Shown: piece by piece, positions 18,686-59,847 of the stretch
Layout: the number at the start of each line of letters is the position of its first letter
How positions within the stretch are numbered: the stretch's first letter is position 1
Origin: a candidate division WOR-3 bacterium
Lineage (GTDB): Bacteria; Hydrothermota; Tepidihabitantia; Tepidihabitantales; Tepidihabitantaceae
Direction of reading: 5' to 3'
NCBI GenBank assembly: GCA_965648905.1
Contig: CBFGIT010000004.1
Span: 32,001-96,000 of the forward strand
Length of the DNA: 64,000 nucleotides
Program-made: the position numbers and the translations under genes
Notes under the pieces: generated by a model
What the model was told of the DNA's origin: nothing
Databases searched by the model: none
The model's input: only the letters and a program-made list of their open reading frames with translations

Positions 18686-18980
18686 AACCTGCTGGAAGGG
18701 TCTGCCCAGCAGCAGGGCGGCTTGAGAGACGCTGCCTGCTGCGCGGCGGCCCGGGCACGGCCTTCCTGCAGGAGAACCTGCAGGGAGAAAAGACGCAGCA
18801 ACAGGTGGCCGTACGCGTCTGGAGGACGCTCCGGACCTACCCGATTCACCGAGCAGGAGGCTGTGATGAGACTCTCTTCCGCGGTCCTCGCGTGCCGGGC
18901 CAGAACCGGCCCGGAAACACAGATGCCACTTCCGGTCGAGGCAGTAGACTGCCAGGATTGCCAGATTACCGGGGGGTTGG

Positions 18981-43745: not shown

Positions 43746-46700
43746 TCAGGGCCGACTCTCCTTCGGCCCGCCAGTCGTCTCCAACTCCCTCAGCCGGCTT
43801 TTGAGCATCTTGTTATCGGGATGGCGATCGAGCGCGTCCTGGCAAGCGCTCAGGGCATCAGCTCTCTTTCCGTTCGCCAGGTATGCCTCAATCAACGTAT
43901 CCCAGATGTTGGGGTCGTCCGAGAGTTCGATGGCACGCAGGGCGTACTTGAGGGCGAGCTTTGCGTTGACTTGGGACACAATCCCAATCCCTCGACGGGA
44001 TTGGGTTATGTCCCGCGTCGTGGCGAGGTTCCATGCGATGCCGTTGAGTTTGCCCGCGAGTTCGGCCCGCGCCCTTGCGTGCTTCGGGAAACGGACAAGG
44101 AACGCTTCGTAACGGGGAAGCTGGACCGAATCCGGCTCGCCCCGCACCGAGTCGGTCATCGCCGTGTAGGCGCGGAAGGCGTCGGCATTGGCCTTGATGT
44201 CGATGGAATCCTTGTGCGTGTCGAACCACTTCTGCCACCTGGCCTGCACGTAGCGCTCGGAGTCCGGCAGGTCGAACCCGGCATAGGCCGAGATGTAGTT
44301 CGGCACGTTCCGGTCGTAGTTGTAGAAGGCGTCTATCGATGGGAACGAGAGCGAGTTGATGAGCATCTGGATGCCCTCGACCTGATAGAGCTGGCAGAGC
44401 GCCCTGCCGCAGGCGCGCTGGAGGTAGACGTCATAGGTCTTTGCGGCTTCGCGCAGGTACTCGACCGCGTCCGGGTTGCCGAGGTTGCCCATCGCGTCGG
44501 CCGCGGCGCAGCGCACCGACGATGCCTTGTCCTCGGCCAGCACCCAGCGCAGCAGGGCCAGCACCTCGCCGCTTGGCCGCACCTTGCCGACGAGCGTCAC
44601 GGCCACGCGCCGAACGTCCTCGGACGTATCCTCGGTCGCAAGCTTGCGGGCGATAGGCAGTGCCTTCACCGATTCCAGCCGCAACAGCGACCGCAAGGCA
44701 AACCTGCGCACCTGCGCGTTGCTGTCTGTGCTCGCCGCCTCGACCAGCGCATCCTCTGCCCCGCGCAGCTTCCAGAGCCCAAGGTCGTCGGCAATGATGA
44801 GCCTGACTTCGGCGTCGCGTGCCTTCAGCAGTGGCAGGACATCGGGGAGTTGCCTGTCACCGATGTCGCCCTGCACGAACCAGTGGTGCAGACACTCCAT
44901 CAGGTCGCGGTTGTAGTCCCGGTCGTATGACGTACCAAGGAAACCGACCAAGTGAGGTAACGCGCTGACCCCGAGTCGCGCGATGTCTCCAATCACGCCG
45001 AATCGCGCGAGTGCGGCCGGGTTGTTTAGCCTGCGGGTTGCAGCAACCGCTTCGAGCGACGGCAGTGCATCCACGTGGCGTTGTCGCACAAGCGGCTGTC
45101 GCACGTCGCGAATTAGGTCGCCACCGTTCCACTCCATGTCGAGATGGACGCCGTGACCGAAGCTGTGGGTCTCCGAGTTGTTAGCGCGGTTGCGGACCTT
45201 GTAGTCGTCGTTGCCGCCGAGGTCGAGACAGATAGCATAGGGCCACAGGTTCGGGTCAGACTCGGGCCAGACACCGCCGAAGCTGTGCCAGTCGTTCATC
45301 AGGATTGCCCCTTTGGGCCGGTCGCAGATGTACTGGTCGTCGCCCTTGTAGTCGATGAAGAGCGAGTAGGAGAACGGCTTGCAGCCCGTGCCGTAGGACG
45401 ATGTCGCGGACTTGTAGATGTCGTTCCCCTCGTAGTCTATCAGGAAACCGGGTGAGCGGTCGCTGCCTGAGCCGCCGGCTCGGAATCCGCCCTCGTATAC
45501 GTCGTCGCCCTTCTTGTCGATGAGGATGGCGTTGGTGACGTGGATGCCCGAGCCCTGGCCGGTGCCGCACTTGTAGTGGTCGTTGCCCTCGTTGTCGATC
45601 AGCGCGCCCAAGGACATGATGTAGGAGCCGCCCTGCGAGCACCAGCCGTTGCTCAAGTAGTCGTCGTTGCCATTGTTGTCCACGAGCAGGCCGACGCCGC
45701 CGTAGGCGACGAGCTTCTTCTCCCACGGATACGCGCGGAACGAGAGCGCGCCGCCCTGACCGTAGCCCGGCAGACCACCCATTGCGTCCTTGGTCGTATC
45801 GACTGCCAGCCGATACTTGTCATTGCCCTCCAAGTCAGAGAGAATGCCCAAGCCGAGCGTCGTTGCCGAACCTTGTCCCATCGATGCACAGTCGTAGACG
45901 TCGTCGCCCGAATCGTCCAGCATCATGCCGAGGCCGAACATGCCTGCGCCCTGGCAGAACGTGTGCGCGCTGAAGGAGTCATTGCCGGCCTTGTCCCACA
46001 GTATGCCGACGCCAAGGATGCCTGCACCCTGCGAGAAATGCTTGGCCTTGTACACGTCGTTGCCGGCAAGGTCCACAAGCATGCCGACGCCGAGGAACCC
46101 AAAGCCCTGGACGTAGCTTGAGTTAGGCGCATCGTAGCGGTCGTTGCCCGCGTGGTCGATGCACACCGCGACTCCGCCGCTGCGGTTGGTAGCGCCAGCG
46201 TTGTTCAAGTAGGCGTCGTCGCCGCCGAGGTCAATGAGCAGCGCTGCGTTTGCGACATGCCGGTCGTTGCCGAACCCGGCAATCCGGACCCGGCCAAACG
46301 GCATCTCAATGACCGTGACGCTGCGAGATCTTCCGGTATCAACGTAGCAATCTGTCGCTTGCCAGCCTGCAGTAGCCTTGACGTATCGGTTCACCGCCGA
46401 AGCAACTTCCAGCGATGCGGAGAGAACCTCCTCGATTCTAACCTGCCGGGCGCGACCGATGAACTCAAGCTGGCTGTCGAAGTTGCCGGTCAGCTCTGCC
46501 ATCCGCTTGCCGTCAGGAGCCAGATACCGGCCTGGATTGACGAAGAAGTAGTCCGCACCCTTGCCCAGCGTCCGTCGGACATTGGACACCTTTCGTTCGG
46601 CTGGCAGTATCGCCATGCACATCCGCTCAACCTCGGCCCGGTACTTGTCGGTGAACACTCGTCCCATGGGTTCGAGTGACACCCGGACATCACCGGCGAC

Positions 46701-47096
46701 GCTCCAGGATGTGACCGAGCCCGTCAACATGCTCACGCCGCTTCGCACCGCCGTCAGTCCGTCCTGCCGGTGTCCGGTGCAGAGCGTCTCCGAGGTCTCC
46801 TCGGCCCACTGCTTCATGTAGAGCGGGCGGTTGGAGACGTAGTCGATGATGGGGAAGCGGCAGCAGTAGCGGTAGCCGCCTTCCCAGCCGCGCGGGAGTT
46901 CGACGTTGCGGACGTCGAGGCCGATGCGCGCGCCCGCGTAGTCTAGCGGGTTGCCGATGGACTCCGCCACGATGGACACCGGTCTCGGGTCCTGGTCGAA
47001 CCACGTCTCCGGGCCGTATTGCTGCACCGGCCCGGCCCACGCCGTCAGCAGAAGAGCGGCGAAGCAGCAGGTTCGGGCCCAATGCTTCACGGTCAT
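43746..47096 (-). CDS. Secreted protein with D..G(N/D)D.Y repeats, HEAT repeats and C-terminal TPR-like segment
   Basis: Many LID..GND.Y / SQG.G repeats; VRR.A..LG HEAT units; TATAAT 7 nt before ATG 47096. Confidence 0.8.
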   Translation of the reverse strand: MTVKHWARTCCFAALLLTAWAGPVQQYGPETWFDQDPRPVSIVAESIGNPLDYAGARIGLDVRNVELPRGWEGGYRYCCRFPIIDYVSNRPLYMKQWAEETSETLCTGHRQDGLTAVRSGVSMLTGSVTSWSVAGDVRVSLEPMGRVFTDKYRAEVERMCMAILPAERKVSNVRRTLGKGADYFFVNPGRYLAPDGKRMAELTGNFDSQLEFIGRARQVRIEEVLSASLEVASAVNRYVKATAGWQATDCYVDTGRSRSVTVIEMPFGRVRIAGFGNDRHVANAALLIDLGGDDAYLNNAGATNRSGGVAVCIDHAGNDRYDAPNSSYVQGFGFLGVGMLVDLAGNDVYKAKHFSQGAGILGVGILWDKAGNDSFSAHTFCQGAGMFGLGMMLDDSGDDVYDCASMGQGSATTLGLGILSDLEGNDKYRLAVDTTKDAMGGLPGYGQGGALSFRAYPWEKKLVAYGGVGLLVDNNGNDDYLSNGWCSQGGSYIMSLGALIDNEGNDHYKCGTGQGSGIHVTNAILIDKKGDDVYEGGFRAGGSGSDRSPGFLIDYEGNDIYKSATSSYGTGCKPFSYSLFIDYKGDDQYICDRPKGAILMNDWHSFGGVWPESDPNLWPYAICLDLGGNDDYKVRNRANNSETHSFGHGVHLDMEWNGGDLIRDVRQPLVRQRHVDALPSLEAVAATRRLNNPAALARFGVIGDIARLGVSALPHLVGFLGTSYDRDYNRDLMECLHHWFVQGDIGDRQLPDVLPLLKARDAEVRLIIADDLGLWKLRGAEDALVEAASTDSNAQVRRFALRSLLRLESVKALPIARKLATEDTSEDVRRVAVTLVGKVRPSGEVLALLRWVLAEDKASSVRCAAADAMGNLGNPDAVEYLREAAKTYDVYLQRACGRALCQLYQVEGIQMLINSLSFPSIDAFYNYDRNVPNYISAYAGFDLPDSERYVQARWQKWFDTHKDSIDIKANADAFRAYTAMTDSVRGEPDSVQLPRYEAFLVRFPKHARARAELAGKLNGIAWNLATTRDITQSRRGIGIVSQVNAKLALKYALRAIELSDDPNIWDTLIEAYLANGKRADALSACQDALDRHPDNKMLKSRLRELETTGGPKESRP
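43973..44014. repeat. In-frame 42-bp palindrome
   Basis: GGGACACAATCCCAATCCC-TCGAC-GGGATTGGGTTATGTCCC. Confidence 0.75.
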
Positions 47097-47177
47097 CGCT
47101 ATGATTATACTGCCTTTGCGGCCCGTGCAAACCCGCACATCCTTGACCAACTGCCGGTTTCGGCCATACTTGCGGCC

Positions 47178-47507
47178 GTGAGAACCGTTGCCTTGCTGCT
47201 CGTTTCCAACATCTTCATGACCTTTGCCTGGTACGGCCACCTGAAGTACAAAAGCTCTCCCCTATGGATTGCCGTGCTGGCGAGCTGGGGCATTGCCTTT
47301 GTCGAGTACTGTTTCCAGGTTCCAGCCAACCGGCTCGGGTATGGCCAGTTCACCGGAGCCCAGCTCAAGACCATCCAGGAAGTTATCACTCTTGTTGTCT
47401 TCGCGGTTTTCTCGGTAACCTACCTGAAGGAGCAGTTCCGCTGGAACTACCTGGTCGGGTTTGCCCTGATTGCGGTGGCTGTTTTCTTCGTCTTCCACAA
47501 GTGGTAG
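47178..47507 (+). CDS. DMT superfamily protein (DUF486-like)
   Basis: SNIFMTFAWYGHLK, EYCFQVPANRLG and QLKTIQEVITL motifs; TTGACC-N16-CATACT 7 nt before GTG. Confidence 0.92.
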   Translation: MRTVALLLVSNIFMTFAWYGHLKYKSSPLWIAVLASWGIAFVEYCFQVPANRLGYGQFTGAQLKTIQEVITLVVFAVFSVTYLKEQFRWNYLVGFALIAVAVFFVFHKW

Positions 47508-47551
47508 CCCAGATAGTTGACTTCCCTGCCTCACCGCTCTAGCATCACGTG

Positions 47552-47953
47552 ATGGACTACCGCCTGTTGTCGGTCTTCGCCCTTGTGCTTTGGGGGGCGT
47601 GGGGCTTTCTGGCCAAGACCATCTCGGGTCGAGTTTCGCCGCAGGGGCTTGCGTTCTGGAGCACGGTCGCCACGGTTGTGCCGGTCGCGGTCTTCGCGTT
47701 CACCGACACCACCGGCAAATGGACCCGGCCGCATCCGCTGGCGCTCGGTTCCGGTCTCGCCTATGGACTCGCCCTGGTATTCTTCTTCCTCGCGCTACGC
47801 CGCGGCCCGGCATCAGTGGTCGTGCCGCTGTCGGGCATGTACATCGTCGTGCCGGCGGTGCTGGGCTATGTCGTTCTCAAAGAACAGCTCAGCCTGTCTC
47901 ATCTTCTCGGCCTGGTCTGTGCCGGACTGGCGGTTCTTTTCCTGAGCCTGTAG
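47552..47953 (+). CDS. EamA-like small transporter
   Basis: WGAWGFLAK, ALRRGPASVVVPL and LKEQLS motifs; TTGACT-N17-TAGCAT 6 nt before ATG. Confidence 0.87.
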   Translation: MDYRLLSVFALVLWGAWGFLAKTISGRVSPQGLAFWSTVATVVPVAVFAFTDTTGKWTRPHPLALGSGLAYGLALVFFFLALRRGPASVVVPLSGMYIVVPAVLGYVVLKEQLSLSHLLGLVCAGLAVLFLSL

Positions 47954-47966
47954 GGCCTGCGTTCAT

Positions 47967-47994
47967 TTGACAACGTTGTTCGAGATGCTAACAT
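47967..47994 (+). promoter_or_regulatory. Promoter for the selenium-linked cluster
   Basis: TTGACA-N16-TAACAT with extended TG. Confidence 0.65.
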
Positions 47995-48250
47995 GAAACC
48001 GTGATTCTCGCGCTGCTGAGGTGCGTACCGTGACTCCGGCCTTGAGCCGGGGCCGTGCGCCCTGGAGACCGAAGACCCACCAGCGCCACAACCGTTTCCT
48101 CATCACAATCACCAAACCAGGCAGATGACCACCGAGCATTGTGCCGGCGGTACGCCGGTTGATCGCGTAGTATCTGTTCCAAACACAGACCGTGCGCCTT
48201 CGGGCGCTGGCAAGACAGGTAGCAAGCAAACATGACCTCAGGAGAAGACT

Positions 48251-49042
48251 ATGCAGAAGCGATACGACTACACCGGTAAGGACGTCCAGGACGTTTACGA
48301 CGGCCCGGGCGGCCTGCTGTGGGAAGCAGTGATGTCCGAGCAGATTCACTCGGGCAAGGATGAAGTGACCGACCGGATGGCAGTAGCCGTGGGCCTGAAA
48401 CCGGGCATGCACGTCCTGGACGTGTGCTCGGCTTTGGGCGCGCCGGCCCGGCACATCGCCAAGAAGTACGGCGTCAAGGTGACCGGGCTCGATTTCACCA
48501 AGACCATGCTCACCAAAGCCATCGAACGGACCAAGGCGGCCGGACTCGACCACCTGGTCAATTTCGTCGAAGGTAACGCTATGGACATGCCGTTCAAGAA
48601 GGAAACCTTTGACGTGGTCTGGGGCCAGGAAGCGTGGTGCTACGTCACCGACAAAGACCAGCTCATGTTCGAGGCGGCCCGCGTCTTGAAGCCGGGCGGG
48701 AAGATCATCTTCACCGACTGGGTCATCACCGGCAAGGTAGACGAGCCGCTGCTCGCCAAACTGTACGAGTCGATGGCGTTTCCGTATATGGAGACCCTCG
48801 AAGGCTGGGCTGACCTGATGAAGAAACACGGTCTGAAGGTTATCGAAGTGAAAGACCAGACCGACGAGTACGCGAAGTGCTTTGACGAGTACAAGAAGAT
48901 GGTCGAGGTGGACCTGAAGCCGACCATCGTCAAGAACTTCGGCGAAGAGCTCTTCGGTTTCGCGACCGGGCTCGTGAACCTGTGGCGCGATGCGGCCCAC
49001 GCGCACAAGGTCGGTCGCGGCTGGTATATGGGCCAGAAGTAG
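48251..49042 (+). CDS. Class I SAM-dependent methyltransferase
   Basis: VLDVCSALGAPA, FDVVWGQEAWCY and RVLKPGG motifs. Confidence 0.88.
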   Translation: MQKRYDYTGKDVQDVYDGPGGLLWEAVMSEQIHSGKDEVTDRMAVAVGLKPGMHVLDVCSALGAPARHIAKKYGVKVTGLDFTKTMLTKAIERTKAAGLDHLVNFVEGNAMDMPFKKETFDVVWGQEAWCYVTDKDQLMFEAARVLKPGGKIIFTDWVITGKVDEPLLAKLYESMAFPYMETLEGWADLMKKHGLKVIEVKDQTDEYAKCFDEYKKMVEVDLKPTIVKNFGEELFGFATGLVNLWRDAAHAHKVGRGWYMGQK

Positions 49043-49046
49043 AGCT

Positions 49047-49099
49047 GCGGCCAAGCAGGGCGCGGAGCGGGATGGCGACCCGCGCTCTGCCTGGGCCGT
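49047..49099. other. Intergenic stem-loop
   Basis: GCGGCCAAGCAGGGCGCGG pairs imperfectly with CCGCGCTCTGCCTGGGCCGT. Confidence 0.55.
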
Positions 49100-49117
49100 G
49101 AACGAACAGGAGCACAC

Positions 49118-50389
49118 ATGTCTGCACACAGGGCTGTCCTGCAGGAACTCGGTTTGAACCTTGAGCTGCATGATGAGGTGCTGAAGTACATCGACCGGAC
49201 TTTTCAGCAGACGGTCGGTGCGCAGCATGGCCGACCCGAAGGAATCGCCTACTTCGACCAAGTGCTGCACGAGTCCCACGGCGGCCGGGTGGCCGAGCTG
49301 GTCGAACAGAAGAAGAGAGGCAGGAAGACCGTGGGCACGTTCTGCATCTACGTGCCCGAGGAACTGGCCATGGCCGCGAACACCGTGCCGGTCGCCCTGT
49401 GCGGCGGAACCCAGTTCTCGGTGCCGCATGCGGAGAAGATGTTCCCGCGCGACATCTGCCCGCTCATCAAGTCCACGCTCGGGCTGGCCTTTTCTAAGAC
49501 CTGTCCGTACGGGCCGCTCAAGAGTTTGGCCGTGGGCGAGACGACCTGCGATGCCAAGAAGAAGACCTGGGAAATCCTTGCCGGCAAGGTGAACTTCCAC
49601 GTCATGGAGCTGCCACAGAAGAAGGACGCAATCGACTTCGAGCTCTGGCGCAACGCAGTGCGGGAGTTCCAGTCGAAGCTGGAAGACCTGTCCGGCACCA
49701 AGGTCACCAAAGAAGCGCTGGGCGAGTCGATTCGGGTCATGAACAACAAGCGCCGGGCTTTGCAGGAGCTGGCCGAGCTGCGCAAGACCAGCCCGCCGCC
49801 GATTTCCGGGCTCGATGCTTTAGTCGTGATGCAGGCAGCACTGTCGGATGAACCGGTGCGCTTCACTGCGGCCGTGAATCGGCTCAACGCCGAGCTGGTG
49901 CAGCGACGGGAAGACGGATTCTCGCCGGTCGCCAGGAATGCAAGGCGGATAATGATTGCCGGCTGCCCTTCGGTGATGGGCAACTGGAAAGTCCACTCGC
50001 TCATTGAGCAGTCCGGTGCGGTCATCGTCCATGACGAAACCTGCACCGGCTCGCGTTACTTCGAGCACCTGATCGACGAGACCGCCCGAGACCTTGAAGG
50101 TCAGGTGAATGCCGTTGCCGACCGGTACATGAAGATCGACTGCGCCTGTTTCACGCCCAACAAGGAGCGCATCGATTCGGTGGTGCAGAAGGCAAAGGAG
50201 TACAACGTCCAGGGCGTCGTGCAGTACGTGCTTCAGACCTGCCACGGTTACAATATCGAAGCGATGCGCGTCGAAGCAGCGCTAAAGGCGGCAAACGTGC
50301 CAAGTCTGAAAATCGTCACCGACTACTCGGAAGAAGACGCGGGGCAGTTGCGCACGCGGATCGAGGCGTTTGTCGAGCAACTCGGCTAG
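49118..50389 (+). CDS. Double-cubane-cluster protein (2-hydroxyacyl-CoA dehydratase superfamily)
   Basis: GTFCIYVPEE, LCGG, RDICPLIKS, GETTCDAKKK, ETCTGSRYF, IDCACFTPN, QTCH and GQLRTRIEAF motifs. Confidence 0.85.
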   Translation: MSAHRAVLQELGLNLELHDEVLKYIDRTFQQTVGAQHGRPEGIAYFDQVLHESHGGRVAELVEQKKRGRKTVGTFCIYVPEELAMAANTVPVALCGGTQFSVPHAEKMFPRDICPLIKSTLGLAFSKTCPYGPLKSLAVGETTCDAKKKTWEILAGKVNFHVMELPQKKDAIDFELWRNAVREFQSKLEDLSGTKVTKEALGESIRVMNNKRRALQELAELRKTSPPPISGLDALVVMQAALSDEPVRFTAAVNRLNAELVQRREDGFSPVARNARRIMIAGCPSVMGNWKVHSLIEQSGAVIVHDETCTGSRYFEHLIDETARDLEGQVNAVADRYMKIDCACFTPNKERIDSVVQKAKEYNVQGVVQYVLQTCHGYNIEAMRVEAALKAANVPSLKIVTDYSEEDAGQLRTRIEAFVEQLG

Positions 50390-50400
50390 GAGGTCTTGTC

Positions 50401-51159
50401 AGGTCAGTTGGCATCGACATCGGCTCGCGCACGACCAAGGTCGTGGTGCTTGAAGACGGCAGGCCGGTCCACTCGTGCGTCGCCGATACCGGCACCGACC
50501 CGCTCGGCGTTGCTCAGCGCCTGCTCGCTGAGGCCGGTACTGACCGGTTGGCACGTGTCATCGCCACCGGCTATGGCCGACACCTGGTCCGTGAGCACCT
50601 GGGCTGCACCGTCGTGACCGAGATAAGGGCCCACGCGCTCGGCGCGAGCCGGCTATTCCCTGCCTGCCACACGGTAATTGACGTCGGCGGACAGGACAGC
50701 AAGGTGATAAGAGTCTCCGCGGGGAAGCAAGCAAACTTCGAGATGAACGACCGGTGCGCTGCCGGCACCGGTCGTTTCCTCGAAGTGATGGCCACGGCCC
50801 TGGGCTACACCCTGGCCGAGTTCGGTCGGGCTGCGCTCGAAGCCCCAAGCTCAGTGACCGTGAACTCGATGTGCACGGTCTTCTCCGAGTCCGAAGTAGT
50901 TTCGCTCATTGCCCGGGGTGCGGACAAGCACGCGATCGCTTGCGGTCTGCACGAGTCGATTGTTGACCGGCTGCTCGCCCTGGTCGGCCGGGTTGGAGCA
51001 GAGCCGGAAGTGGTCCTCTCCGGCGGTGTGGCACTTAACCCATGCATCCGAACGTTGCTCGAAAGCCGGCTCGGGGTCCGGCTTCTGGTGCCGGACCGGC
51101 CGCAACTTGTCGGCGCGATTGGTGCGGCGCTGAGTGTGAATGGAGCAACGGCCGTATGA
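50401..51159 (+). CDS. BadF/BcrAD-type ATPase activator (DCCP reductase/activase); no canonical start before the first motif
   Basis: GIDIGSRTTK, ATGYGR, IDVGGQDSK, MNDRCAAGTGRFLE and SMCTVFSESE motifs. Confidence 0.88.
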   Translation, partial: RSVGIDIGSRTTKVVVLEDGRPVHSCVADTGTDPLGVAQRLLAEAGTDRLARVIATGYGRHLVREHLGCTVVTEIRAHALGASRLFPACHTVIDVGGQDSKVIRVSAGKQANFEMNDRCAAGTGRFLEVMATALGYTLAEFGRAALEAPSSVTVNSMCTVFSESEVVSLIARGADKHAIACGLHESIVDRLLALVGRVGAEPEVVLSGGVALNPCIRTLLESRLGVRLLVPDRPQLVGAIGAALSVNGATAV

Positions 51160-51202
51160 ACGGCGTGCGCTATCTCTTTACACTCGGCCGGAGGTGGAAC
51201 TC

Positions 51203-51382
51203 GTGACTCACGCTGCAAAGGGAGGCAGTCTGCCTTCCGCGACCGAAGTCCGCCGTGCAGTACCAATCGCGCTGCTGGTTGCCGGGCTAGTCTGCCTGGG
51301 AATCGCCACTCTCCTGCAACAATGGGCTCTTGTCCACCAAGTGAGTACCAGTATATGACTGCCGTGCATGGGCCTGGTTTAG
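51203..51382 (+). CDS. Small membrane selenoprotein with UxxC motif (CD1871A-like CxxC family), Sec at TGA 51356-51358
   Basis: GGAGG RBS; one hydrophobic helix, then STSI-TGA-LPCMGLV-TAG; hairpin 11 nt after the TGA. Confidence 0.75.
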
Positions 51383-51386
51383 GCCC
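51370..51386 (+). promoter_or_regulatory. Putative bacterial SECIS
   Basis: GGGCCT-GGTTT-AGGCCC, starting 11 nt after the UGA. Confidence 0.7.
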
Positions 51387-51437
51387 CAAACCCGCTGTCG
51401 GAAGTCCGGCAGCACATGTTCCTGAAAGGAGGAACAC

Positions 51438-53234
51438 ATGACACCAAAGGCCGTGATTCAGGTTTTGCTGGCATTGGCTGCCACGGCCAGCGCATCGCAC
51501 CGGGTGATGGTCATCGAAGACGTCACCGCCACCTGGTGCACCTACTGCCCTGGAGCCGCGCGCGGGGCAGACGAGCTCAAGTTCCGGGCGTTCGATTCGG
51601 TGGTGGTTATCGGATACCACTCGTCCTCAAGCGACCCGTTCTATACCGCAACCGCGGCCGCCCGTATGAGCTACTACGGAGTAACGGGATATCCGACCGT
51701 GGTGCTCGACGGCTCCAACTCGATTGTCGGTGGTCTGCACACCGGTACGATGTACCCGACCTATCGTCAGTACTTTGACTACCGGAAAACCGTTCCGACG
51801 CCGCTCGAAATCGACCTGTCGGTTGCCTACGATTCAGTGAGCCGTAACGGTACTCTTACCATCGTGGTGCGCAACATCGGTTCGTCCTCAGTCAGCGGCC
51901 AGTTGCAGGTCGCGCTCATCGAGAGCCACATCTACTATCCCTGGCAGGGGATGGACAGCCTGCAGGACGTCGAGCGAACCATGCTGCCAAATGCTTCAGG
52001 CGAGGCTATCACAGTCCCGGCCGGAGATTCAGTCGTTCGTACGCGCAGTTTCAGCATCAACCCGAGCTGGGTTGCGCGCAACTGCGACTTCGTAGTCTTT
52101 GTGCAGAACAACACGAATCGCGAGATGTTCCAGGGCGCGACAATCGCGGTCATCCCCGAGCCAGTGCTTCGGTTCGTCGGTTACCAGTCGGTGCTGCCCG
52201 CACCGGGCGGCGAGTTCGACCTGACCGTTGGTCTGCGCAACATCGGCTCAGCCAATGCTCAGGGCGCAAGCGCCGCGCTCTCAACCACCGACCCGAACGT
52301 GACCGTGCTCACCGCGAATGCGAACTTCGGGCCGATCAGGGTGGCCGAGGACGGTTACGCACAGACGCCGTTTCGCATCAGCGTGTCAAGTGGCTGTCCG
52401 GACCCGCATGTCGCCTCAATGCGCCTGGTCGTCACGGGCTCGGACTTCAGTATCGACACTGTCCTCTTCCCACTCAACATCACCGCGAGCCCGGGCTACT
52501 GCGACAACATGGAGTACGGCCAGCATGGCTGGACGCACAACGGCATATTGGACAACTGGCACCTGACTACCTATCGCAGCGTGTCGCCGACTCACAGTTG
52601 GTACTGCGGCCAGGAAGGCAGCTATCAGTATACCAACGAGAATGACGCCCGGCTGATGACGCCTTTCTACACCATCGGGGACTCAACCGCGATGCACTTC
52701 CAGCACTACTACGGCACTGAGCTGAACTATGACTTCTGCCTGGTGGAAATCGGCAACGGTTCACCCTTCTGGTGGCCGCTCGCGCAGTACAGCGGCTCCT
52801 CATCAGGCTGGCAGCAGGCCGACTTCAACCTGGCCCGGTTCCAGGGGCAGACCGTGCAGGTCCGGTTCCGCTTCATCAGCGACTACAACGTGACCGGCGA
52901 AGGATGGTACATCGACGACTTCTGGAGCGGAGCGCTGACCGGGGTGGCGGAACGGTCGCATGGTCTGGTTCTTTCCACCGGGACAGGCAGCAACCCGTGC
53001 CATAAGAATGCGCGGTTGCACTATCAACTGCCCGCGGGCAGGGACGGCAGCATTGCGGTCTTCGACATCGACGGCCGCGTGGTGCGCTGCCTCAAAAGGT
53101 CAGTCACTGGTTCGGGTCGGGCCGACTGGAACCTTGCCGATGACCTCGGACAGCCGGTAGGAAACGGGACCTACTTTGTCCGACTGAAGTCAGGCGACGC
53201 TGCTCAGACCGTGAAGCTCGCCGTAGTCAGGTAG
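51438..53234 (+). CDS. Omp28-like thioredoxin-fold secreted protein with FlgD/T9SS-type CTD
   Basis: EDVTATWCTYCP, GYPTVVLDG and VVFVQ motifs; GTYFVRL terminus. Confidence 0.82.
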   Translation: MTPKAVIQVLLALAATASASHRVMVIEDVTATWCTYCPGAARGADELKFRAFDSVVVIGYHSSSSDPFYTATAAARMSYYGVTGYPTVVLDGSNSIVGGLHTGTMYPTYRQYFDYRKTVPTPLEIDLSVAYDSVSRNGTLTIVVRNIGSSSVSGQLQVALIESHIYYPWQGMDSLQDVERTMLPNASGEAITVPAGDSVVRTRSFSINPSWVARNCDFVVFVQNNTNREMFQGATIAVIPEPVLRFVGYQSVLPAPGGEFDLTVGLRNIGSANAQGASAALSTTDPNVTVLTANANFGPIRVAEDGYAQTPFRISVSSGCPDPHVASMRLVVTGSDFSIDTVLFPLNITASPGYCDNMEYGQHGWTHNGILDNWHLTTYRSVSPTHSWYCGQEGSYQYTNENDARLMTPFYTIGDSTAMHFQHYYGTELNYDFCLVEIGNGSPFWWPLAQYSGSSSGWQQADFNLARFQGQTVQVRFRFISDYNVTGEGWYIDDFWSGALTGVAERSHGLVLSTGTGSNPCHKNARLHYQLPAGRDGSIAVFDIDGRVVRCLKRSVTGSGRADWNLADDLGQPVGNGTYFVRLKSGDAAQTVKLAVVR

Positions 53235-53241
53235 GAGAACG

Positions 53242-54036
53242 ATGTCTTTGTCAGTGGCGACCAGAGCCCTTGGTCTGGCCTCCTTTCTGGGCCTGGTCGC
53301 CCTGACCGGATGTTCTTCTGCGCCCGAGGTGTCGATTATCCCGACCAACCGCGTGGTGCTGGCTGAGCTCTTTACCTGGCAGCGCTGTTCCTACTGCCCC
53401 TATGCTGCGCGCACGCTCGACAGTCTGGCCCGTGAGTTCGCAGACAGCGTGGTCGTGGTAGCGTATCACCGCCGGGTTGCGGGTGATACGCTCTCGCCCG
53501 AGTACGTCGAGGAACGACGGGCCTACTACTACGACCAGGGCGGCGAACCGGCCACGGTCTTTGACGGCGGACCGCCGGTGCGCACACCCGGGCCTGAGCA
53601 CAACTACGCGACTTTCCGCAACTACATCTTGGCCGCAAAGAGCGTGACGCCCAAGGTCCAGCTCGACCTTGCCGCGGAGCTTGACTCGCTCGAAGGCACG
53701 GTCACGGTTGCGGCGCGCGGCGTCGACTCGACACCATCAGATACTCTGCAACTGTTTGTTGTGCTGGTTGAGGACAGCGTGCGCAAAGACCTGCCCGGCG
53801 CGACTGATTCGGTGTTCAACAGCGTCATGCGGGCGATGCTGCCTGGCCCGACCGGGCGACCGATTCGGCTCACACGACTGGATACGCTGACGGTCAAAGA
53901 GTCGTTCCCTCTTAACCAGAAGTGGAACCGCGCGCGGCTCGGGGTAGTGGCGTTTGTCCAGCACCCGACCACGCAACAGGTCCTGCAGGCGGCCGCCATC
54001 CACAGACTCGCAGATACGAAAGGAGTCCAACAATGA
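53242..54036 (+). CDS. Omp28-like CxxC lipoprotein
   Basis: Lipobox ALTGC; VLAELFTWQRCSYCP; VVAFVQ...VLQA. Confidence 0.82.
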   Translation: MSLSVATRALGLASFLGLVALTGCSSAPEVSIIPTNRVVLAELFTWQRCSYCPYAARTLDSLAREFADSVVVVAYHRRVAGDTLSPEYVEERRAYYYDQGGEPATVFDGGPPVRTPGPEHNYATFRNYILAAKSVTPKVQLDLAAELDSLEGTVTVAARGVDSTPSDTLQLFVVLVEDSVRKDLPGATDSVFNSVMRAMLPGPTGRPIRLTRLDTLTVKESFPLNQKWNRARLGVVAFVQHPTTQQVLQAAAIHRLADTKGVQQ

Positions 54037-54704
54037 ACCACTCGACACTGAGGCTCTATTTCCTGGTTCTGGCAACAGGTGTCTTCCTTACCGACGCAAC
54101 GGCGTTCTCTTCGCCGTTCAGTCTGGTCTGCCGCTCTGACACCGTGCAGCAGGTAGAACCAGGCGGCCAGTCCGAGTTTCATTTCACCTTGACCAACACC
54201 GGCACGCAGCCAGACGTCTACCGGCTTGACTACCGTGTGCTCGACAGCGTACCCGGCTGGATTGTAGTCTGCTGCGTGCGCGGCCGATGCGCTGAGCCGG
54301 GCGTGCCGTTCTTCGACACGCTGGCACCGGGCGAGGCGGACTCCTCGCCCGACCTGACCGTGTACACCAACTCGACCCACGGCGAAGAGGTCGTCAATCT
54401 CAAAGTAACGTCACTGGGCGAGCCGCAGATGGTGGACTCAATCAGTACGCGTACACGCGTGGGCGCGGGCGTTGCTGAGCCGGGCCGCTCCTCCCGGGCT
54501 TGCCGGATTCAGCCCGCAGCGCGCGTCGTGCGTGACATGCTCTTGCTGGATGCTGAATGCTCGCCAGCCGTGTTGCTCGATGCCTGCGGCCGCAGTGTTC
54601 TCAGCCTGACCAGCGGCCCAAACCGAATTGCGCGGCTCGCCCCCGGCGTGTACTTCGTGCGCCCGACCGACCACAGACCGGGCGCAAAGGTCGTAGTGAA
54701 CTAA
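54033..54704 (+). CDS. Secreted Ig-like protein with CC..C motif and T9SS-type CTD
   Basis: ATGA overlap; TLTNTG..DVY; WIVVCCVRGRC; LAPGVYFVR. Confidence 0.7.
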   Translation: MNHSTLRLYFLVLATGVFLTDATAFSSPFSLVCRSDTVQQVEPGGQSEFHFTLTNTGTQPDVYRLDYRVLDSVPGWIVVCCVRGRCAEPGVPFFDTLAPGEADSSPDLTVYTNSTHGEEVVNLKVTSLGEPQMVDSISTRTRVGAGVAEPGRSSRACRIQPAARVVRDMLLLDAECSPAVLLDACGRSVLSLTSGPNRIARLAPGVYFVRPTDHRPGAKVVVN

Positions 54705-54743
54705 GCGCCACTCGACAATGGGCCAGGGTCGGCACAAACGGCG

Positions 54744-55010
54744 GTGACTACAGGAACGCGGCCCGGCAGGGTTCCTGCCGGCTCCTGCGAACCGGACGGC
54801 GTCGAGTTGGCCTTTGCGTCGGTGCGCGAGTTGCTGCGTGCCGGCGAGCTGCTCAGGTCGGCAGGCTTTGACGTACTGGTAGTCCCGCGCCGCGTTCCGG
54901 ATTGCGGGGCGCTGCTGCTTCTCCCGCGTCGGTCGGTTGAGGCCGCACTCGCCTTGCTTGCAGCGCACTCAATTTCGCCCGTTGAGGAGGTGAATCATGA
55001 GCGACAGTAG
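54744..55010 (+). CDS. DUF3343-like small protein
   Basis: FASVRELLRAGELL...VVPRRVPDCG pattern; adjacent to yedF-like and selD. Confidence 0.6.
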   Translation: MTTGTRPGRVPAGSCEPDGVELAFASVRELLRAGELLRSAGFDVLVVPRRVPDCGALLLLPRRSVEAALALLAAHSISPVEEVNHERQ

Positions 55011-55608
55011 TTCTGGACCGCAGAAACCAGCAGTGGAGCTTGATGTCCGCGGACTTGTCTGCCCGGAGCCGGTGGTAAGAACAAGAAAGGCTTTGGAAAG
55101 CGCCACGGTGGGAACGGTCGTGACCGTTACGACCGACAGCCCGGAGTCCCGGGACAACATCATTCGGTTTGCCCGGCGCTCAGGATGTCCGGCCGTGACC
55201 GAAGAAACAAAGTCGGGCGTCTTCATTGTTCGCATCACCAAGGCCAGTGTCCCCGGGCCGGTCTGCACGCGAACCGGCACAACCGTACTCGTTACATCAG
55301 AACGACTCGGTTCCGGTGACGACAAGCTGGGCAACCTGCTCATGACCCTGTTCCTGCGTACCCTGACCGAGCTGCCTTCACGACCATCGATTCTGGCGCT
55401 GATGAACGGCGGTATCAAACTGGCCTTGTCCGACTCGGAGCATCTTCCGTCGCTGCGTAGCCTGGCTGACCAGGGTGTCAAGGTGATGGTCTGCGGCACC
55501 TGCCTTGATTTCTTCGGGGTCAAGGACCGCGTGTCGGTCGGCACTGTCTCCAACATGTACGAACTGGCCGAATCACTCGCGGCCGCCGAGAAGGTCATCG
55601 TACTCTAA
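54997..55608 (+). CDS. yedF: Sulfurtransferase-like selenium metabolism protein (TusA/SirA + DsrE-like)
   Basis: LDVRGLVCPEPVV, GSGDDKLG.LLM, CGTCLDFFG and VSNMYE motifs. Confidence 0.88.
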   Translation: MSDSSSGPQKPAVELDVRGLVCPEPVVRTRKALESATVGTVVTVTTDSPESRDNIIRFARRSGCPAVTEETKSGVFIVRITKASVPGPVCTRTGTTVLVTSERLGSGDDKLGNLLMTLFLRTLTELPSRPSILALMNGGIKLALSDSEHLPSLRSLADQGVKVMVCGTCLDFFGVKDRVSVGTVSNMYELAESLAAAEKVIVL

Positions 55609-55621
55609 TCCAGGAGGAATC

Positions 55622-56671
55622 TTGAAGCGTCGTCTGCTCGACTACGCCAAGGCCGCGGGCTGAGCGGCCAAGGTCTGCCAGGAAGACCTGGCGCAGGTAC
55701 TGCGTCAGCTTCCTGCCTTCTCGCATCCTGACCTCCTGGTCGGCGGCGAGACCTCGGACGACGCCGGCGTGTACCGGCTCGACCCGGAACGCGCGCTCGT
55801 CTTGACCGTGGACGTGCTCACGCCGATTGCCGACGACCCCTATGTCTTCGGCCAGATTGCCGCGGCCAACTCGCTATCCGACGTGTATGCCATGGGCGGC
55901 ACGCCGGTCGCGGCCCTGAGCATCATCACCTTTCCGGTCGGCGAGATTGCGCATGACGACGTGCGGGCGATGCTCGCGGGCGCTTGGGACAAGGTGCGTG
56001 AGGCCGAAGCGGTCATCGCCGGCGGCCACACGCTCAAGGATGTCGAGGTCAAGTGCGGGCTTTCGGTCACCGGCCTGGTCCACCCGGACCGGGTGGTGAA
56101 GAACGTTGGCGCCAGACCCGGCGACACGCTGGTCCTTACCAAGCCACTCGGCACCGGTATCATCACCACTGCCTTGCGGGTCGACCTCGCGCCGGCGTCC
56201 GCAGTCGCTGAGGCAAACCGAGTGATGACAACGCTGAACCGGGCTGCGGCTCGGGCCATGTGCGAGACCGGAGTTCATGCCGCGACCGATATCACCGGGT
56301 TCGGCCTGCTTGGCCATGCCTGGGAAATGGCGCAGACCGGCGACATAGACATCGTCATCGAAGCAGAACAGGTTCCGCTCATACCCGGGGCGCTGGACCT
56401 GGCTGGAGAGTCGCTCTTTCCTGCCGGCTCGCTTAAGAACTGCGACTTCATGAAATCGCGGGCCGACTTTGCTCCGTCCGTACCTGAAGACCGGCGCCTG
56501 CTCCTGTGCGATGCCCAGACATCAGGCGGGCTGCTCATGTCTGTTCCGGAAGCCCGGGCTGATTCGCTGCTGAACCGGCTTCACGATGCGGGTGTCCAAG
56601 AAGCCGCTGTTATCGGCCGGGTCCGGGAAGGTTCTGGCCGGATTCAGGTCACCTGGACTCCCCAACTGTGA
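55622..56671 (+). CDS. selD: Selenide, water dikinase (selenoprotein; Sec at TGA 55661-55663)
   Basis: AGGAGG RBS; TTG start; MKRRLLDYAKAAG-U-AAK in frame with DDAGVY, AANSLSDVYAMGG, TDITGFGLLGH and DAQTSGGLL. Confidence 0.95.
55667..55692 (+). promoter_or_regulatory. Putative SECIS of selD
   Basis: GCC-A-AGGTCT-GCCAGGA-AGACCT-GGC hairpin just after the UGA. Confidence 0.7.
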
Positions 56672-56836: not shown

Positions 56837-57217
56837 TCATCTCAATGCCAGTCCGTATCCGACAACATGCGGCTGACCGGATTCCAGCACAACCCTGCCC
56901 ATCGCCTGCACGTTGCTGCCGACCCGCTGCGGGATAAAGACGTTGGTCGGGTGCATGTCTACATAGATGTCGCCGGTCCCGTCCTCCACCCATATCCAGC
57001 CGCCCGATGGGCACTCGCTCGTTATCTTCCCGGCCACAAGCACATCCCTACCCTCCCACGCCGTCGGGTTGTTCAGAATCTCCCGGGCGGACGTGATGAC
57101 CATACCAGTGGAAATCGCCTTGCCGTAGGTGGCCGCCTTTGCCGCCGCACGCCGGCTGCCGCAGCCCACGACGGCTGCGGCAGCCATCAGGACCAGCCCC
57201 AATGCGAAGTACTTCAT
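56837..57217 (-). CDS. OB-fold-like lipoprotein
   Basis: Lipobox VVGC; GKITSECPSGGWIWVEDGTG. Confidence 0.7.
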   Translation of the reverse strand: MKYFALGLVLMAAAAVVGCGSRRAAAKAATYGKAISTGMVITSAREILNNPTAWEGRDVLVAGKITSECPSGGWIWVEDGTGDIYVDMHPTNVFIPQRVGSNVQAMGRVVLESGQPHVVGYGLALR

Positions 57218-57927
57218 GTCATCTCCTTTGTTGTTTCTTCTCGGATAGCTCTGCCGTCCGAGAACTCGATAATCCTGTGTCCGACCCGGGCCAGCTCCGG
57301 GTCATGGGTCGCCACGATGATGCCCAATCCTTCGTCCGCGAGCCCGCGGAAGATACCGGTCACCGACTCGCGCGACTTCCTCTCCAGCCTGCCGGTCGGC
57401 TCGTCGGCGAGGAGAATCCTCGGTCGGTTGACCAGGGCGCGCGCGATGGCAACACGCTGCATGTCACCACCGTTGAGATGACGCGGCAGCGCCTTACGCA
57501 CCTTCTCGAGTCCGACGCGCTCGATCAGCTCGGCAACGCGGCCGCCATCGCGCCGGCGGGCGAAGACGAGCGGCAGCCTGATGTTCTCCTCGACCGTCAG
57601 GGTCGGAATCAGGTAGAACAACTGAAAAATGAACCCGATGTGCTCGCGCCGGAACCGCACGAGCTCCTGCTCCTTCAGCCCGGCGACCTCGGTATCCGCA
57701 ATCTTCAGGCTACCCCTTGTCGGCCGGTCTAGGCATCCGAGCTGGTTGAGCAGCGTGGTCTTGCCCGACCCGCTCCGCCCCATGACCGAGACAATTTCGC
57801 CCGTCCTCAGGTCAAGGTCAACACCGGCCAGGGCGTGGATGGTCTCGCCGCCACGGCGAAAGCTCCGCCACAGATTCCGTGCCTCAATCAACTTCCGATC
57901 GGCCGTCGGCAACCGGTCATTGGCCAT
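57214..57927 (-). CDS. ABC transporter ATP-binding protein (LolD/MacB type)
   Basis: GRSGSGKT; degenerate signature LNGGD; LADEPTG. Confidence 0.92.
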   Translation of the reverse strand: MANDRLPTADRKLIEARNLWRSFRRGGETIHALAGVDLDLRTGEIVSVMGRSGSGKTTLLNQLGCLDRPTRGSLKIADTEVAGLKEQELVRFRREHIGFIFQLFYLIPTLTVEENIRLPLVFARRRDGGRVAELIERVGLEKVRKALPRHLNGGDMQRVAIARALVNRPRILLADEPTGRLERKSRESVTGIFRGLADEGLGIIVATHDPELARVGHRIIEFSDGRAIREETTKEMT

Positions 57928-57928
57928 T

Positions 57929-58687
57929 CTAGATGACTCCGTCCTGAAGCCTTATGACCCGCGAGAACCGAGGTTCAAGACCTCGGTCATGGGTGGCGAT
58001 GACCACGGTGAGGTTCGAGCCCAGGTTCAGGTCCGAAAGGAGGTTCAGGATCTCGTCGCGGGTTCTCGTATCAAGATTCCCGGTCGGCTCGTCGGCCAGA
58101 AGGAGTTTCGGGTCGTTGATGAGCGAGCGGGCAACCGCTACTCGCTGCATCTCACCGCCGGACAGCTCAACCGGCCGGTGCGTCATACGGTGTCCCAGCC
58201 CGACGCGCTCCAGCAGTTCCCGGGCGCGCGCGCCGGACTTGCCTGGAGGACACGATTCGAATTCGGCGGACCGATTGCGGTCACTTCCCCGTGCCGGGTC
58301 GTTGCTGCCCCATATCGTCGGCAGCAACACATTCTCAAGTGCGCTCAGGTTCGGCATCAGGTAGAACTCCTGAAACACGAAGCCGATGTTGCGGCGCCGG
58401 AGTGCATCGAGCTTCACCCGGTGCCGAGTCACATCGTGTCCCAGTATGGTCAGTCGGCCCCCGGTGGGCCGGTCCATCAGGCCCAGCAGGTTTAGCAGTG
58501 TGGTCTTGCCCGCGCCCGAGTGGCCGACAACACCAAGGAACTCACCCGACTCGATGCTCAGGTCAATGCCCTTGAGCGCGTGTATCTTCTCCGCCCCGCG
58601 CCGATACACCCTGGTCAGCCCGCGCGCCTCGACTGCCTGGCCCGGCCCGCCATGCTGACTTCTGACTTCGACCGGGTCCACGCTCAC
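57929..58687 (-). CDS. ABC transporter ATP-binding protein (LolD/MacB type)
   Basis: GHSGAGKT, LSGGE and LADEPTGNLD; GTG start overlapping the permease stop. Confidence 0.92.
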   Translation of the reverse strand: MSVDPVEVRSQHGGPGQAVEARGLTRVYRRGAEKIHALKGIDLSIESGEFLGVVGHSGAGKTTLLNLLGLMDRPTGGRLTILGHDVTRHRVKLDALRRRNIGFVFQEFYLMPNLSALENVLLPTIWGSNDPARGSDRNRSAEFESCPPGKSGARARELLERVGLGHRMTHRPVELSGGEMQRVAVARSLINDPKLLLADEPTGNLDTRTRDEILNLLSDLNLGSNLTVVIATHDRGLEPRFSRVIRLQDGVI

Positions 58688-59844
58688 TCCGTCTTTATCG
58701 CCTCGATCGGCCTGATGCTGGCGGCACGCAGCGCCGGATAGAGCCCGGCGAGGAGGCCGAGCACAATCGAGAGCCCGATGCAAGCAAGCATCGTCAGGAC
58801 CGAGAGCCCGATGAGCGAGCCCTCAGGCGCGAAGGGTATCATCCCGCGAATCAGCTCCTCGACCAGGCGTGAGGACCCGAGCGCGATGAGCACGCCGACC
58901 GCGCCGCCGCTCGCTGTGGTGAGGATAGTCTCGGCCCACGTCAGCTTGAACACGTCGCCGCGCGAGCCGCCCATCGCCTTCATCATTCCGATCTCCCGGG
59001 TCCGCTCGAACACCGCCATCAGCACCGTATTCAGTACCCCCACGCCGCCGAGGATGATGGCGATGAAGATGACTGCCGACACGAATACCCGGGTACTCGC
59101 CATCAACTGCCCGATCGTGCCGAGCAGCTCGGTCAGCGGGAATACGTTCATGTCCACTTCGCTCGCCTTGAGCGAGGCGACGAGATTATCAGTCTGGTCC
59201 ACCTTCCGGGCCTTGATGAGGATCAACACCAGCTTGCCTTCGAGCCCGGAAATCCGCTGCAGGGTCTTGCGTGGCATGAAGACGAACCCGTCGTCCTGGG
59301 TATTGGTGCGATTGACCACGGCGCTCACCCGCAGGGTCACGTTCTTCTCCGGCAGGGTCCACCGGTCGCCGGGCTCCAGTCCTGTCTCCTCGGCCACCGA
59401 CGAACCCAGGATGATGCTTGAATCCGATGCGAACCACGCACCGCGCAGCTCCCATGCCGGCCGCAGATGCATGTAGTCCTCGTCGATGCCGAGCATGATG
59501 ACGTTTCTGCCGCCGGGCTGGAACACCGCGTCCATTATCACGCCCGCGGCTTCGGCCACGCCCGGGTCGGCCTTCACTTTGTCCAGCAACCCCTCGTCCA
59601 TGTAGCGCGGCCATTTACCGCCGTGCAGCGCGATCGTCGCCGCCTCATACGGGCAGCCTTTGGGCACGACCATGACGTGCGCGCCCAGGGCCCCGAGCTC
59701 GCCTTTGAGCCGCGACTGGTAGCCCTGCTGGAACTCAAACAGCGAGTACAGCACCGCGATCGCAATCGCCACACCCAAGACGGTCAATATGGTCCGAATC
59801 GGGCGCCGGGCTAGGTTCTTGAACGCCAGCACGAACCAGGTCAT
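58684..59844 (-). CDS. MacB/FtsX-family ABC permease
   Basis: KNLARRPIRTILT, ERTREIGMMKAMG and YPALRAA motifs. Confidence 0.92.
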   Translation of the reverse strand: MTWFVLAFKNLARRPIRTILTVLGVAIAIAVLYSLFEFQQGYQSRLKGELGALGAHVMVVPKGCPYEAATIALHGGKWPRYMDEGLLDKVKADPGVAEAAGVIMDAVFQPGGRNVIMLGIDEDYMHLRPAWELRGAWFASDSSIILGSSVAEETGLEPGDRWTLPEKNVTLRVSAVVNRTNTQDDGFVFMPRKTLQRISGLEGKLVLILIKARKVDQTDNLVASLKASEVDMNVFPLTELLGTIGQLMASTRVFVSAVIFIAIILGGVGVLNTVLMAVFERTREIGMMKAMGGSRGDVFKLTWAETILTTASGGAVGVLIALGSSRLVEELIRGMIPFAPEGSLIGLSVLTMLACIGLSIVLGLLAGLYPALRAASIRPIEAIKTE

Positions 59845-59847
59845 CGG

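Follow-up and report, generated by a model that had tools for sequence, protein, structure and literature searches.

The locus reported here bears on the question of how anaerobes obtain selenide from organic selenium. Earlier publications already cover the link between the double-cubane cluster protein (DCCP) and SelD, the gene order DUF3343-yedF-selD, mlp clusters with DCCP and sel genes as neighbors, and selenoproteins related to Omp28 (NF045500). According to 10.1101/2022.07.06.499078, 955 of 970 DCCPs occur in genomes with SelD, a tie left unexplained there, and the natural substrate of DCCP is given as unknown (PMC7317905, PMC11971306). Type 1 mlp clusters were proposed to salvage methyl selenides; selenide is methylated by a clostridial Mlp2, and dimethylselenide can be used only with sdmC (PMC10418091). 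SdmABC of Methanococcus voltae is cited as a similar system (PMC10418091, PMC11097638), and a similar locus of M. maripaludis rises under selenium starvation (PMC11097638). Here we analyzed a 64,000-nucleotide stretch (the window) from a candidate division WOR-3 bacterium (GCA_965648905.1, contig CBFGIT010000004.1, positions 32,001 to 96,000), in which a block of ten + strand genes at 48251-56671 joins an S-adenosylmethionine (SAM) methyltransferase, a DCCP with its activator, exported cysteine proteins, and selenium genes.

The ten window genes are a mosaic, the variable and detached upstream half of a larger WOR-3 selenium cluster. It is not a self-contained pathway. A sequence-only reading made earlier, which inferred a pathway for the reductive mobilization or methylation of a selenium or sulfur compound, had missed the constant partners of the methyltransferase, an HgdB/HgdA-type pair and corrinoid methyltransferase genes. 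In this genome, the pair lies inside a corrinoid methyltransferase cluster on another contig (C2:31697-37960, L144). Selenium supply or homeostasis is the probable role of the cluster as a whole. As the best single explanation of all observations, which we put forward tentatively, a core of the methyltransferase, HgdB/HgdA, and an activator would mobilize organic selenium for SelD.

The distribution of these genes was surveyed in 272 genomes of the phylum, many of them incomplete, and because the surveyed genomes are related and kin are not independent, no statistic is claimed on co-occurrence. The methyltransferase was found in 80 genomes, DCCP in 43, selA in 120, and the HgdA-like gene, with the C2 query, in 86. 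All 80 methyltransferase genomes contained the HgdA-like gene (Jaccard 0.93 for the presence of the two genes), and the coordinates placed both within 16 kb of each other in 53 of the 80. The selenium link claimed in the sequence-only reading was borne out, with selA in 41 of the 43 DCCP genomes and 74 of the 80 methyltransferase genomes versus 120 of 272 overall. The source genome, which is 99.6% complete, carries selA on C1, selB and a second selD encoding selenocysteine (Sec) on C8, and tRNA-Sec on C35. The second selD (C8:87941-88963) adjoins selB and has a C-A-G-U motif that also occurs in the selD genes of other WOR-3 families. Where homologues of the methyltransferase are named, they carry the label candidate division WOR-3, in agreement with the guess made in the sequence-only reading.

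Of the 79 further genomes with the methyltransferase, 74 supplied loci of up to 20 kb, and the gene was called in 72 of these. The commonest order was methyltransferase, corrinoid protein, MtaA-like protein, RACE, HgdB-like and HgdA-like subunits, second MtaA-like protein, and activator, the corrinoid gene being the next large gene after the methyltransferase in 35 of the 72 loci. RACE was present in 40 loci and a sel gene in 33; 27 loci had an FTR-beta-like gene, 26 had Omp28 (18 of them in the window's family), 14 had an NMT1-type ATP-binding cassette (ABC) system, and seven had a sodium symporter. Outer-membrane channel genes also accompany the cluster in relatives. In several genomes of the window's family, G203, G193, G207, and G219 among them, the window-type block continues straight into the corrinoid block. 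A WOR-3-type block with the leader motif and the Sec micro-protein described below was also seen on a contig of a Planctomycetia-titled genome (L014), which may reflect mis-binning or transfer.

Gene order was expected to be conserved in relatives, and this was only half borne out. Pairwise links recur: methyltransferase and DCCP lie within 8 kb of each other in 25 of the 29 genomes having both, 13 of 20 genomes have the Omp28 lipoprotein no more than 8 kb from DCCP, and 24 of 39 have it no more than 10 kb from the methyltransferase (lipoprotein counts take 55 of 62 genomes, omitting seven with only a weak match of 32-38%). By contrast, gene order is shuffled between families, and DCCP was found in only 29 of the 80 methyltransferase genomes. 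In G182, a genome of the same genus, DCCP's expected place is taken by an ABC system and a remnant of the activator. The methyltransferase is missing from 14 of the 43 DCCP genomes, yet DCCP there still lies near Omp28, the secreted protein, selD, or selA/selB (G164, G166, G168, G134, G146), so the DCCP-Omp28-selD association is real across families.

In the strongest rival explanation, the block is a selenium island without a single pathway, and separate units (methyltransferase-HgdAB-corrinoid, DCCP-activator, yedF-selD, and exported CxxC/UxxC proteins) have gathered behind one regulated promoter because all of them require selenium or react to it. The shuffled order, the DCCP genomes with Omp28 or selD and no methyltransferase, the finding of YedF in only 11 of the 132 genomes of the class, and the joint presence of all eight larger window genes in only two of the first 60 related loci speak for it, whereas the recurrent adjacency of methyltransferase and DCCP, seen in WOR-3 and also in 16 of the 18 loci from planctomycetes, speaks against it. 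We regard it as rather unlikely for the block as a whole; for the Omp28 part it can be combined with organoselenium mobilization by the core.

The window features are as follows:

47967-47994, + strand, sigma-70-like promoter site, TTGACA-16-TG-TAACAT, predicted, 10/12 consensus match

48005-48093, + strand, conserved leader motif and candidate cis-regulatory RNA, in the 257-nt leader

48251-49042, + strand, class I SAM methyltransferase, fold nearest SDMT/PMT/RebM, invariant AWC motif (Cys130)

49118-50389, + strand, DCCP, long form, NF040772 465.8 bits (cut-off 350)

~50398-51159, + strand, ATP-dependent activator (archerase), TIGR00241 231.4 (cut-off 125.4), putative GUC start

51203-51382, + strand, 59-aa CD1871A-like membrane micro-protein with UxxC, UGA at 51356 with a hairpin like a selenocysteine insertion sequence (SECIS), putative start codon

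51438-53234, + strand, secreted Omp28-domain CxxC protein with a MAM-like domain and a C-terminal sorting-type domain

53242-54036, + strand, Omp28-domain CxxC lipoprotein, PF11551 44.8

54033-54704, + strand, secreted protein of 223 aa with 7 Cys, C-terminal tail common to many proteins of the genome

54744-55010, + strand, DUF3343-like small Cys protein, weak PF11823 match, preceding yedF in relatives too

54997-55608, + strand, YedF (SirA + DsrE) of selenium metabolism, TIGR03527 188.7 (cut-off 110)

55622-56671, + strand, Sec-containing SelD, TIGR00476 360.2 (cut-off 125), in-frame UGA at 55661

Most of the earlier gene assignments stood. The ten genes are co-directional and tightly packed, with intergenic gaps of -14 to 75 nt, and DCCP, activator, YedF, and SelD all exceeded the cut-offs of their hidden Markov models. 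Both Omp28-like proteins passed the Pfam cut-off for the domain (34.9, with 65.1 for the longer one, which also reached 27.5 against 23 for TIGR04183), and both are CxxC rather than Sec proteins. The secreted protein at 54033-54704 is indeed Cys-rich; its "Ig-like" fold is putative, and scans with NCBIfam-type and Pfam families gave zero matches. The DUF3343-like gene fits in size, its single Cys, and its position before yedF, while its PF11823 score (15.9 bits, E 0.0093) lies below the cut-off of 25. The putative single promoter of the block rests on the predicted site at 47967-47994, both hexamers of which are kept in the nearest relative G182. A terminator-like stem lies at 51153-51169. Contigs of one RNA run matched the window only in short conserved pieces, too little to bear on transcription. 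Both in-frame UGA codons, at 51356 and 55661, are followed by a hairpin.

For the methyltransferase, the predicted model (predicted local distance difference test, pLDDT, 92.4) gave the top template-modeling scores with the SDMT-like structure 2o57 (0.88) and PMT (0.85-0.89), while ordering by E-value put TleD and RebM at the top. The enzymes with the top template-modeling scores are onium-forming N-methyltransferases. Family scans yielded only sub-threshold matches, and NF041675 (sarcosine/dimethylglycine N-methyltransferase) scored 112.7 bits against a cut-off of 550, a likeness of fold only. Cys130 and Asp156 are invariant, AWCY being present in 145 of 146 motif matches from three clades, and align with His140 and Asp166 of RebM, which we take to be its catalytic pair. 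A Cys at this position would suit a soft selenium or arsenic substrate. Five longer proteins join the methyltransferase to TIGR04282, a radical SAM protein, an HdrA-like part, a glutamine amidotransferase, or an HGD-D fragment; these fusions were not used as proof, as two of the five look like joined neighboring genes.

The HgdB/HgdA pair on C2 is the second element of the proposed core. HgdB-like subunits carry Cys at six positions matching DCCP Cys76, Cys114, Cys144, Cys309, Cys342, and Cys375 (42-49 of 49 sequences each) and never at Cys95, and four Cys are conserved in the HgdA-like subunits (49-50 of 50). This layout is that of BzdN/BzdO, an ATP-driven reductase (PMC11971306, PMC7317905), and the predicted clusters of the pair are, as in BzdNO, one [8Fe-9S] and one [4Fe-4S]. 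Apparent in-frame TGA codons in HgdA-like genes were rejected as signs of Sec, because each single flagged codon was the terminal stop at the match end, as checked on the G118 coordinates. The His-Cys-Cys zinc ligands of the two MtaA-like proteins (Mlps) of WOR-3 are kept by all 46 sequences of one and by 40 of 42 of the other, the remaining two being truncated, and this ligand set is tied to sulfur or selenium methyl transfer (PMC10418091). In a quick tree with unnamed Bacillota sequences and without labeled references, they formed two clades of their own. Type 1 mlp clusters have no tetrahydrofolate methylase within 20 kb; the single PF00809 match of this genome is on a different contig. At C1:63369-67219, a 514-aa gene, presumably trimethylamine-methyltransferase-like, lies with a corrinoid protein and a homocysteine S-methyltransferase, a possible sink for methyl groups.

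A distant form of the methyltransferase (35% identity) occurs in the Planctomycetia-titled genome G275 in the order DCCP, methyltransferase, HgdB, HgdA, activator, and it was found in 18 of the 171 genomes of that class. Its neighbors in the 18 loci were DCCP in 16, an HgdA-like gene in 15, selA together with selB in nine, and selD in eight; a corrinoid-protein gene was present in none, and no Omp28 match was called, five of the contigs being shorter than 7 kb. The core thus keeps near sel genes in two phyla, WOR-3 and planctomycetes. The planctomycete HgdB that was examined has fewer Cys than the WOR-3 HgdB-like subunits. Seven planctomycete SelD proteins (among loci L292-L299) have an N-terminal Cys-rich domain that resembles the WOR-3 FTR-beta-like gene by eye, and one scanned planctomycete SelD also ends in a C-terminal AhpD domain. 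The methyltransferase was not found in 201 sampled genomes of the phylum of G272 (a Desulfobacteraceae record), a sample that included no positive control.

In the mechanism that we propose, every chemical step of which is inferred, an organic selenium compound would be taken up via the NMT1-type ABC system or sodium symporter encoded beside the cluster in relatives. The methyltransferase would methylate the selenium atom to give an activated selenonium, and the HgdB/HgdA pair would break a C-Se bond with ATP-driven electrons. In WOR-3, the corrinoid protein and the two His-Cys-Cys methyltransferases would strip the methyl groups to leave selenide, which YedF/DUF3343 might hand to SelD. DCCP may act as an optional second reductase, and the micro-protein and the Omp28/secreted block may be co-regulated envelope redox proteins whose Sec forms would consume selenium. 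MarHDK, found beside non-selenium mlp clusters (PMC10418091), offers an analogy to this scheme. The exact order of these steps is doubtful. The envelope thiol/selenol relay of the sequence-only reading could likewise exist, its sole support being the gene neighborhood.

Several observations weigh against organoselenium mobilization by this core. A substrate has been shown for none of the enzymes, and sulfur and selenium chemistry are indistinguishable from sequence. The planctomycete methyltransferase is only 35% identical to the WOR-3 form, and because its module had no corrinoid gene in all 18 loci, the corrinoid demethylation step is not universal. RACE was not found in this genome, where the C2 block consists of two Mlps and a corrinoid protein; it is missing, too, from nine related loci holding the HgdA-like gene. 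No supported grouping of the WOR-3 Mlps with Bacillota mlp-cluster proteins was found in the quick tree. The methyltransferase is not required for Sec synthesis, since 46 selA genomes are without it, and six methyltransferase genomes (66-98% complete) have no selA match. Outside WOR-3, the best 80 of 539 methyltransferase matches were ranked against P0122, and 59 loci of at least 3 kb were examined. These closest homologues (41-50%) adjoin a radical SAM/SPASM gene in 53 of the 59 loci, with arsenosugar-type TIGR04282 in 24 and TIGR04283 in 12, and no sel genes. This setting and the lack of planctomycete corrinoid genes are the main objections. The radical SAM/SPASM gene, sister methyltransferase, and TIGR04282/TIGR04283 form an operon on many metagenome contigs (L164-L243), possibly for a metalloid-sugar pathway not yet described, in which the radical SAM protein reached no NCBIfam cut-off.

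Detoxification or overflow would employ the same genes with the same selenium linkage: the reductases would make selenide from selenite or diselenides, the methyltransferase would turn excess selenium into volatile methylselenides, and the corrinoid set would recover these in times of scarcity. Such a role would account for a planctomycete module that needs no demethylase, and it fits the exporter-type EamA/DMT genes that lie immediately upstream in this genome and in several others of the family. However, the uptake-type ABC or symporter genes (14 and seven of 72 loci) and the outer-membrane channels point the other way, and SAM would be spent in a futile cycle if one operon encoded both a scavenging and a discarding enzyme; we consider it unlikely. 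Biosynthesis or maturation is less probable still. In this case, SelD would feed a selenium metabolite or a selenium-bridged double cubane, and the methyltransferase would finish the product or modify an Fe-S enzyme. The operon does hold a dedicated second selD while the other selD adjoins selB, the sister methyltransferases sit in biosynthetic-looking radical SAM/glycosyltransferase operons, and Haft and Gwadz list a selenium-bridged cluster as a formal possibility (10.1101/2022.07.06.499078), but the DCCP structure has a sulfido bridge (PMC7317905) and many of the clusters carry importers. Least probable of all is a role in the chemistry of organoarsenic compounds or other metalloids, in which selenium would take part solely through helper selenoproteins, a scheme proposed for the SAO system. 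It matches the arsenosugar-type transferases of the sister loci and the SaoX/SaoP/SaoA best NCBIfam hits of the ABC subunits; against it stand three Sao scores under cut-off, TIGR04282 not being found in this genome, and selA, selB, and selD themselves being neighbors in two phyla.

The window DCCP matches 6ENO over its full length (E 1e-119) with the seven Cys in register, and Cys76, 95, 114, 144, 309, 342, and 375 are conserved in 24-25 of 25 homologues; the printed Cys spacing pattern, used as a regular expression, gave no match. Its activator has no ATG, GTG, or TTG before the first conserved motif, where GTC stands instead (window 50390-50400). Among 34 DCCP-type activators, 19 have ATG or GTG three to five codons before this motif, while the other 15 have ATC (11), ATA (2), or GTC (2, including the window gene) at the same place after a Shine-Dalgarno-like run. 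The activators of the corrinoid blocks have normal starts in 28 of 28 cases. A pseudogene or assembly error was ruled out, because the DCCP-activator junction is unchanged in a contig of a related strain (~96% identical) and 14 other homologues also have a non-canonical codon. Stop read-through fusing the two proteins was ruled out as well, as the frame offset varies. Weak initiation may limit the amount of activator.

The micro-protein ends in STSI-U-LPCMGLV. After one unrelated row was dropped, 26 copies, some near-identical, were aligned, with UGA in 12 and an aligned Cys in 14, and a GGCCU-loop-AGGCC hairpin, a pattern drawn from the UGA copies, follows the codon in 12 of 12 UGA copies versus 0 of 14 Cys copies. 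With the aligned UGA, the hairpin, and the Sec machinery of the genome, it is probably a Sec/Cys family. It did not match NF040920 (CD1871A, cut-off 32 bits), for which a Cys homologue scored 16.3 bits, and a search of the accessible text of PMC13188914 and PMC13326102 found no mention of its Sec form by name. No published description of a Sec micro-protein was found, though Haft and Tolstoy 2025 could cover it. Among the Omp28 proteins, UxxC occurs in homologues of family f14 and in a paralogue of the long Omp28 protein (C18:18685-20424, 53% identity, UGA at 18745), which is split by ordinary gene calling.

The leader motif was present in 15 copies in methyltransferase leaders, mostly of the window's family. 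A search with its model added one further copy, again upstream (L087), while other families and the rest of this genome gave no clear match. The two-helix consensus has two-sided changes in three of ten pairs, and its covariation is modest: four of 500 shuffles reach the score, and related sequences can score so without structure. Rfam gave no gathering-level match in the window and none at E 10 in the leader, which may resemble pieces of SAM-I or cobalamin riboswitches. Weak second matches of the model (E 0.002-0.16), which may be due to chance, lie at the start of the micro-protein gene (window 51178-51267; L094:12641-12726; L084:8882-8970; L095:12641-12726). A second short hairpin, GCCGGC..GCCGG at 48131-48158, is nearer the start codon and common to about 12 family members. 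For the leader motif and the non-AUG activator start, no published description was found, and no literature search was aimed at either.

Around the block, two small transporter genes (DUF486/DMT, EamA) lie directly upstream at 47178-47953, and about ten members of the same family also have the EamA gene ahead of the methyltransferase. Further upstream, 43746-47240 (- strand) encodes an 1164-aa secreted protein with, by eye, repeated motifs and a HEAT-like part; downstream, an ABC permease/ATPase set was recognized by eye at 56837-61008 (- strand).

No published description of the methyltransferase-HgdAB core was found. An undescribed ATP-driven route, in which a methyltransferase with Cys at its catalytic position and a BzdNO-like heterodimer methylate and cleave organoselenium for selenoprotein synthesis in at least two phyla, with control by a new leader RNA and a non-AUG-limited activator in the window's family, is an idea that we rate as rather improbable; if true, double-cubane enzymes would gain a physiological job in selenium metabolism. 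The locus narrows the DCCP/selenium question to the methyltransferase, HgdB/HgdA, and the activator, and since this set is small, soluble, expressible, and keeps to sel genes in two phyla, substrate screens are direct. A probable family of Sec-containing proteins is added by the micro-protein, and the leader motif may be a regulatory RNA that precedes a selenium operon.

The type 1 mlp clusters of Kountz and Balskus (PMC10418091), with a corrinoid protein, two His-Cys-Cys MtaA-like proteins, usually RACE, and DCCP and sel genes nearby, are close in composition to the WOR-3 cluster, whose Mlps have the same ligands. The window itself holds none of these core genes, and the WOR-3 cluster is led by a SAM methyltransferase and split by HgdB/HgdA. 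Type 1 clusters are defined by a pair of Mlps together with a corrinoid protein and RACE in one direction with at most 2 kb between core genes, whereas the C2 block has no RACE and HgdB plus HgdA (~2.4-2.7 kb) set the second Mlp apart. The words "dehydratase", "SAM-dependent", and "WOR-3" are absent from the main text of that paper, and "dehydratase" and "WOR-3" from its supplements, as far as these were available. The SAO system (10.1101/2022.07.06.499078) shares a DCCP beside an NMT1/SsuA-type ABC transporter in selenium-using anaerobes, but genes from relatives, outside the window and with one representative each, scored 55.1/300, 147/295, and 254.4/360 against the SaoX, SaoP, and SaoA cut-offs. 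No SaoL/SaoC-type match was found among the recurring neighbors scanned, and the available text of that source contains neither "methyltransferase" nor "corrinoid" nor "Omp28". With the class I benzoyl-coenzyme A (CoA) reductase BzdNO (PMC11971306), the C2 pair shares the pattern of a six-Cys double-cubane and a [4Fe-4S] subunit, but it scores far under the BzdN/BzdO cut-offs, and no CoA-ligase or aromatic-pathway genes are among the recurring neighbors of the cluster.

The micro-protein shares with the CD1871A family (NF040920) a small membrane protein ending in C-terminal CxxC-x-G-L while scoring under the cut-off. Likewise, the window Omp28 proteins share the domain and CxxC/UxxC with the Omp28-related selenoproteins (NF045500) but score 75.1 and 48.7 against NF045500 (cut-off 200) and 47.5 and 76.4 against NF033782 (cut-off 150). 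The DCCP/DCCP-R pair of Carboxydothermus hydrogenoformans (6ENO, 7YYL; PMC7317905) agrees with the window pair in full length, the seven Cys, the N-terminal extension, and the adjacent activator, from which the window differs in the non-canonical activator start and in a pair that is dispensable among relatives. The YedE/YedF/DUF3343 genes of Lin et al. (PMC5322559), whose available text does not contain "methyltransferase", share the DUF3343-yedF-selD order with the window, and a STRING table in the same paper lists a 2-hydroxyglutaryl-CoA dehydratase subunit and its activase as partners.

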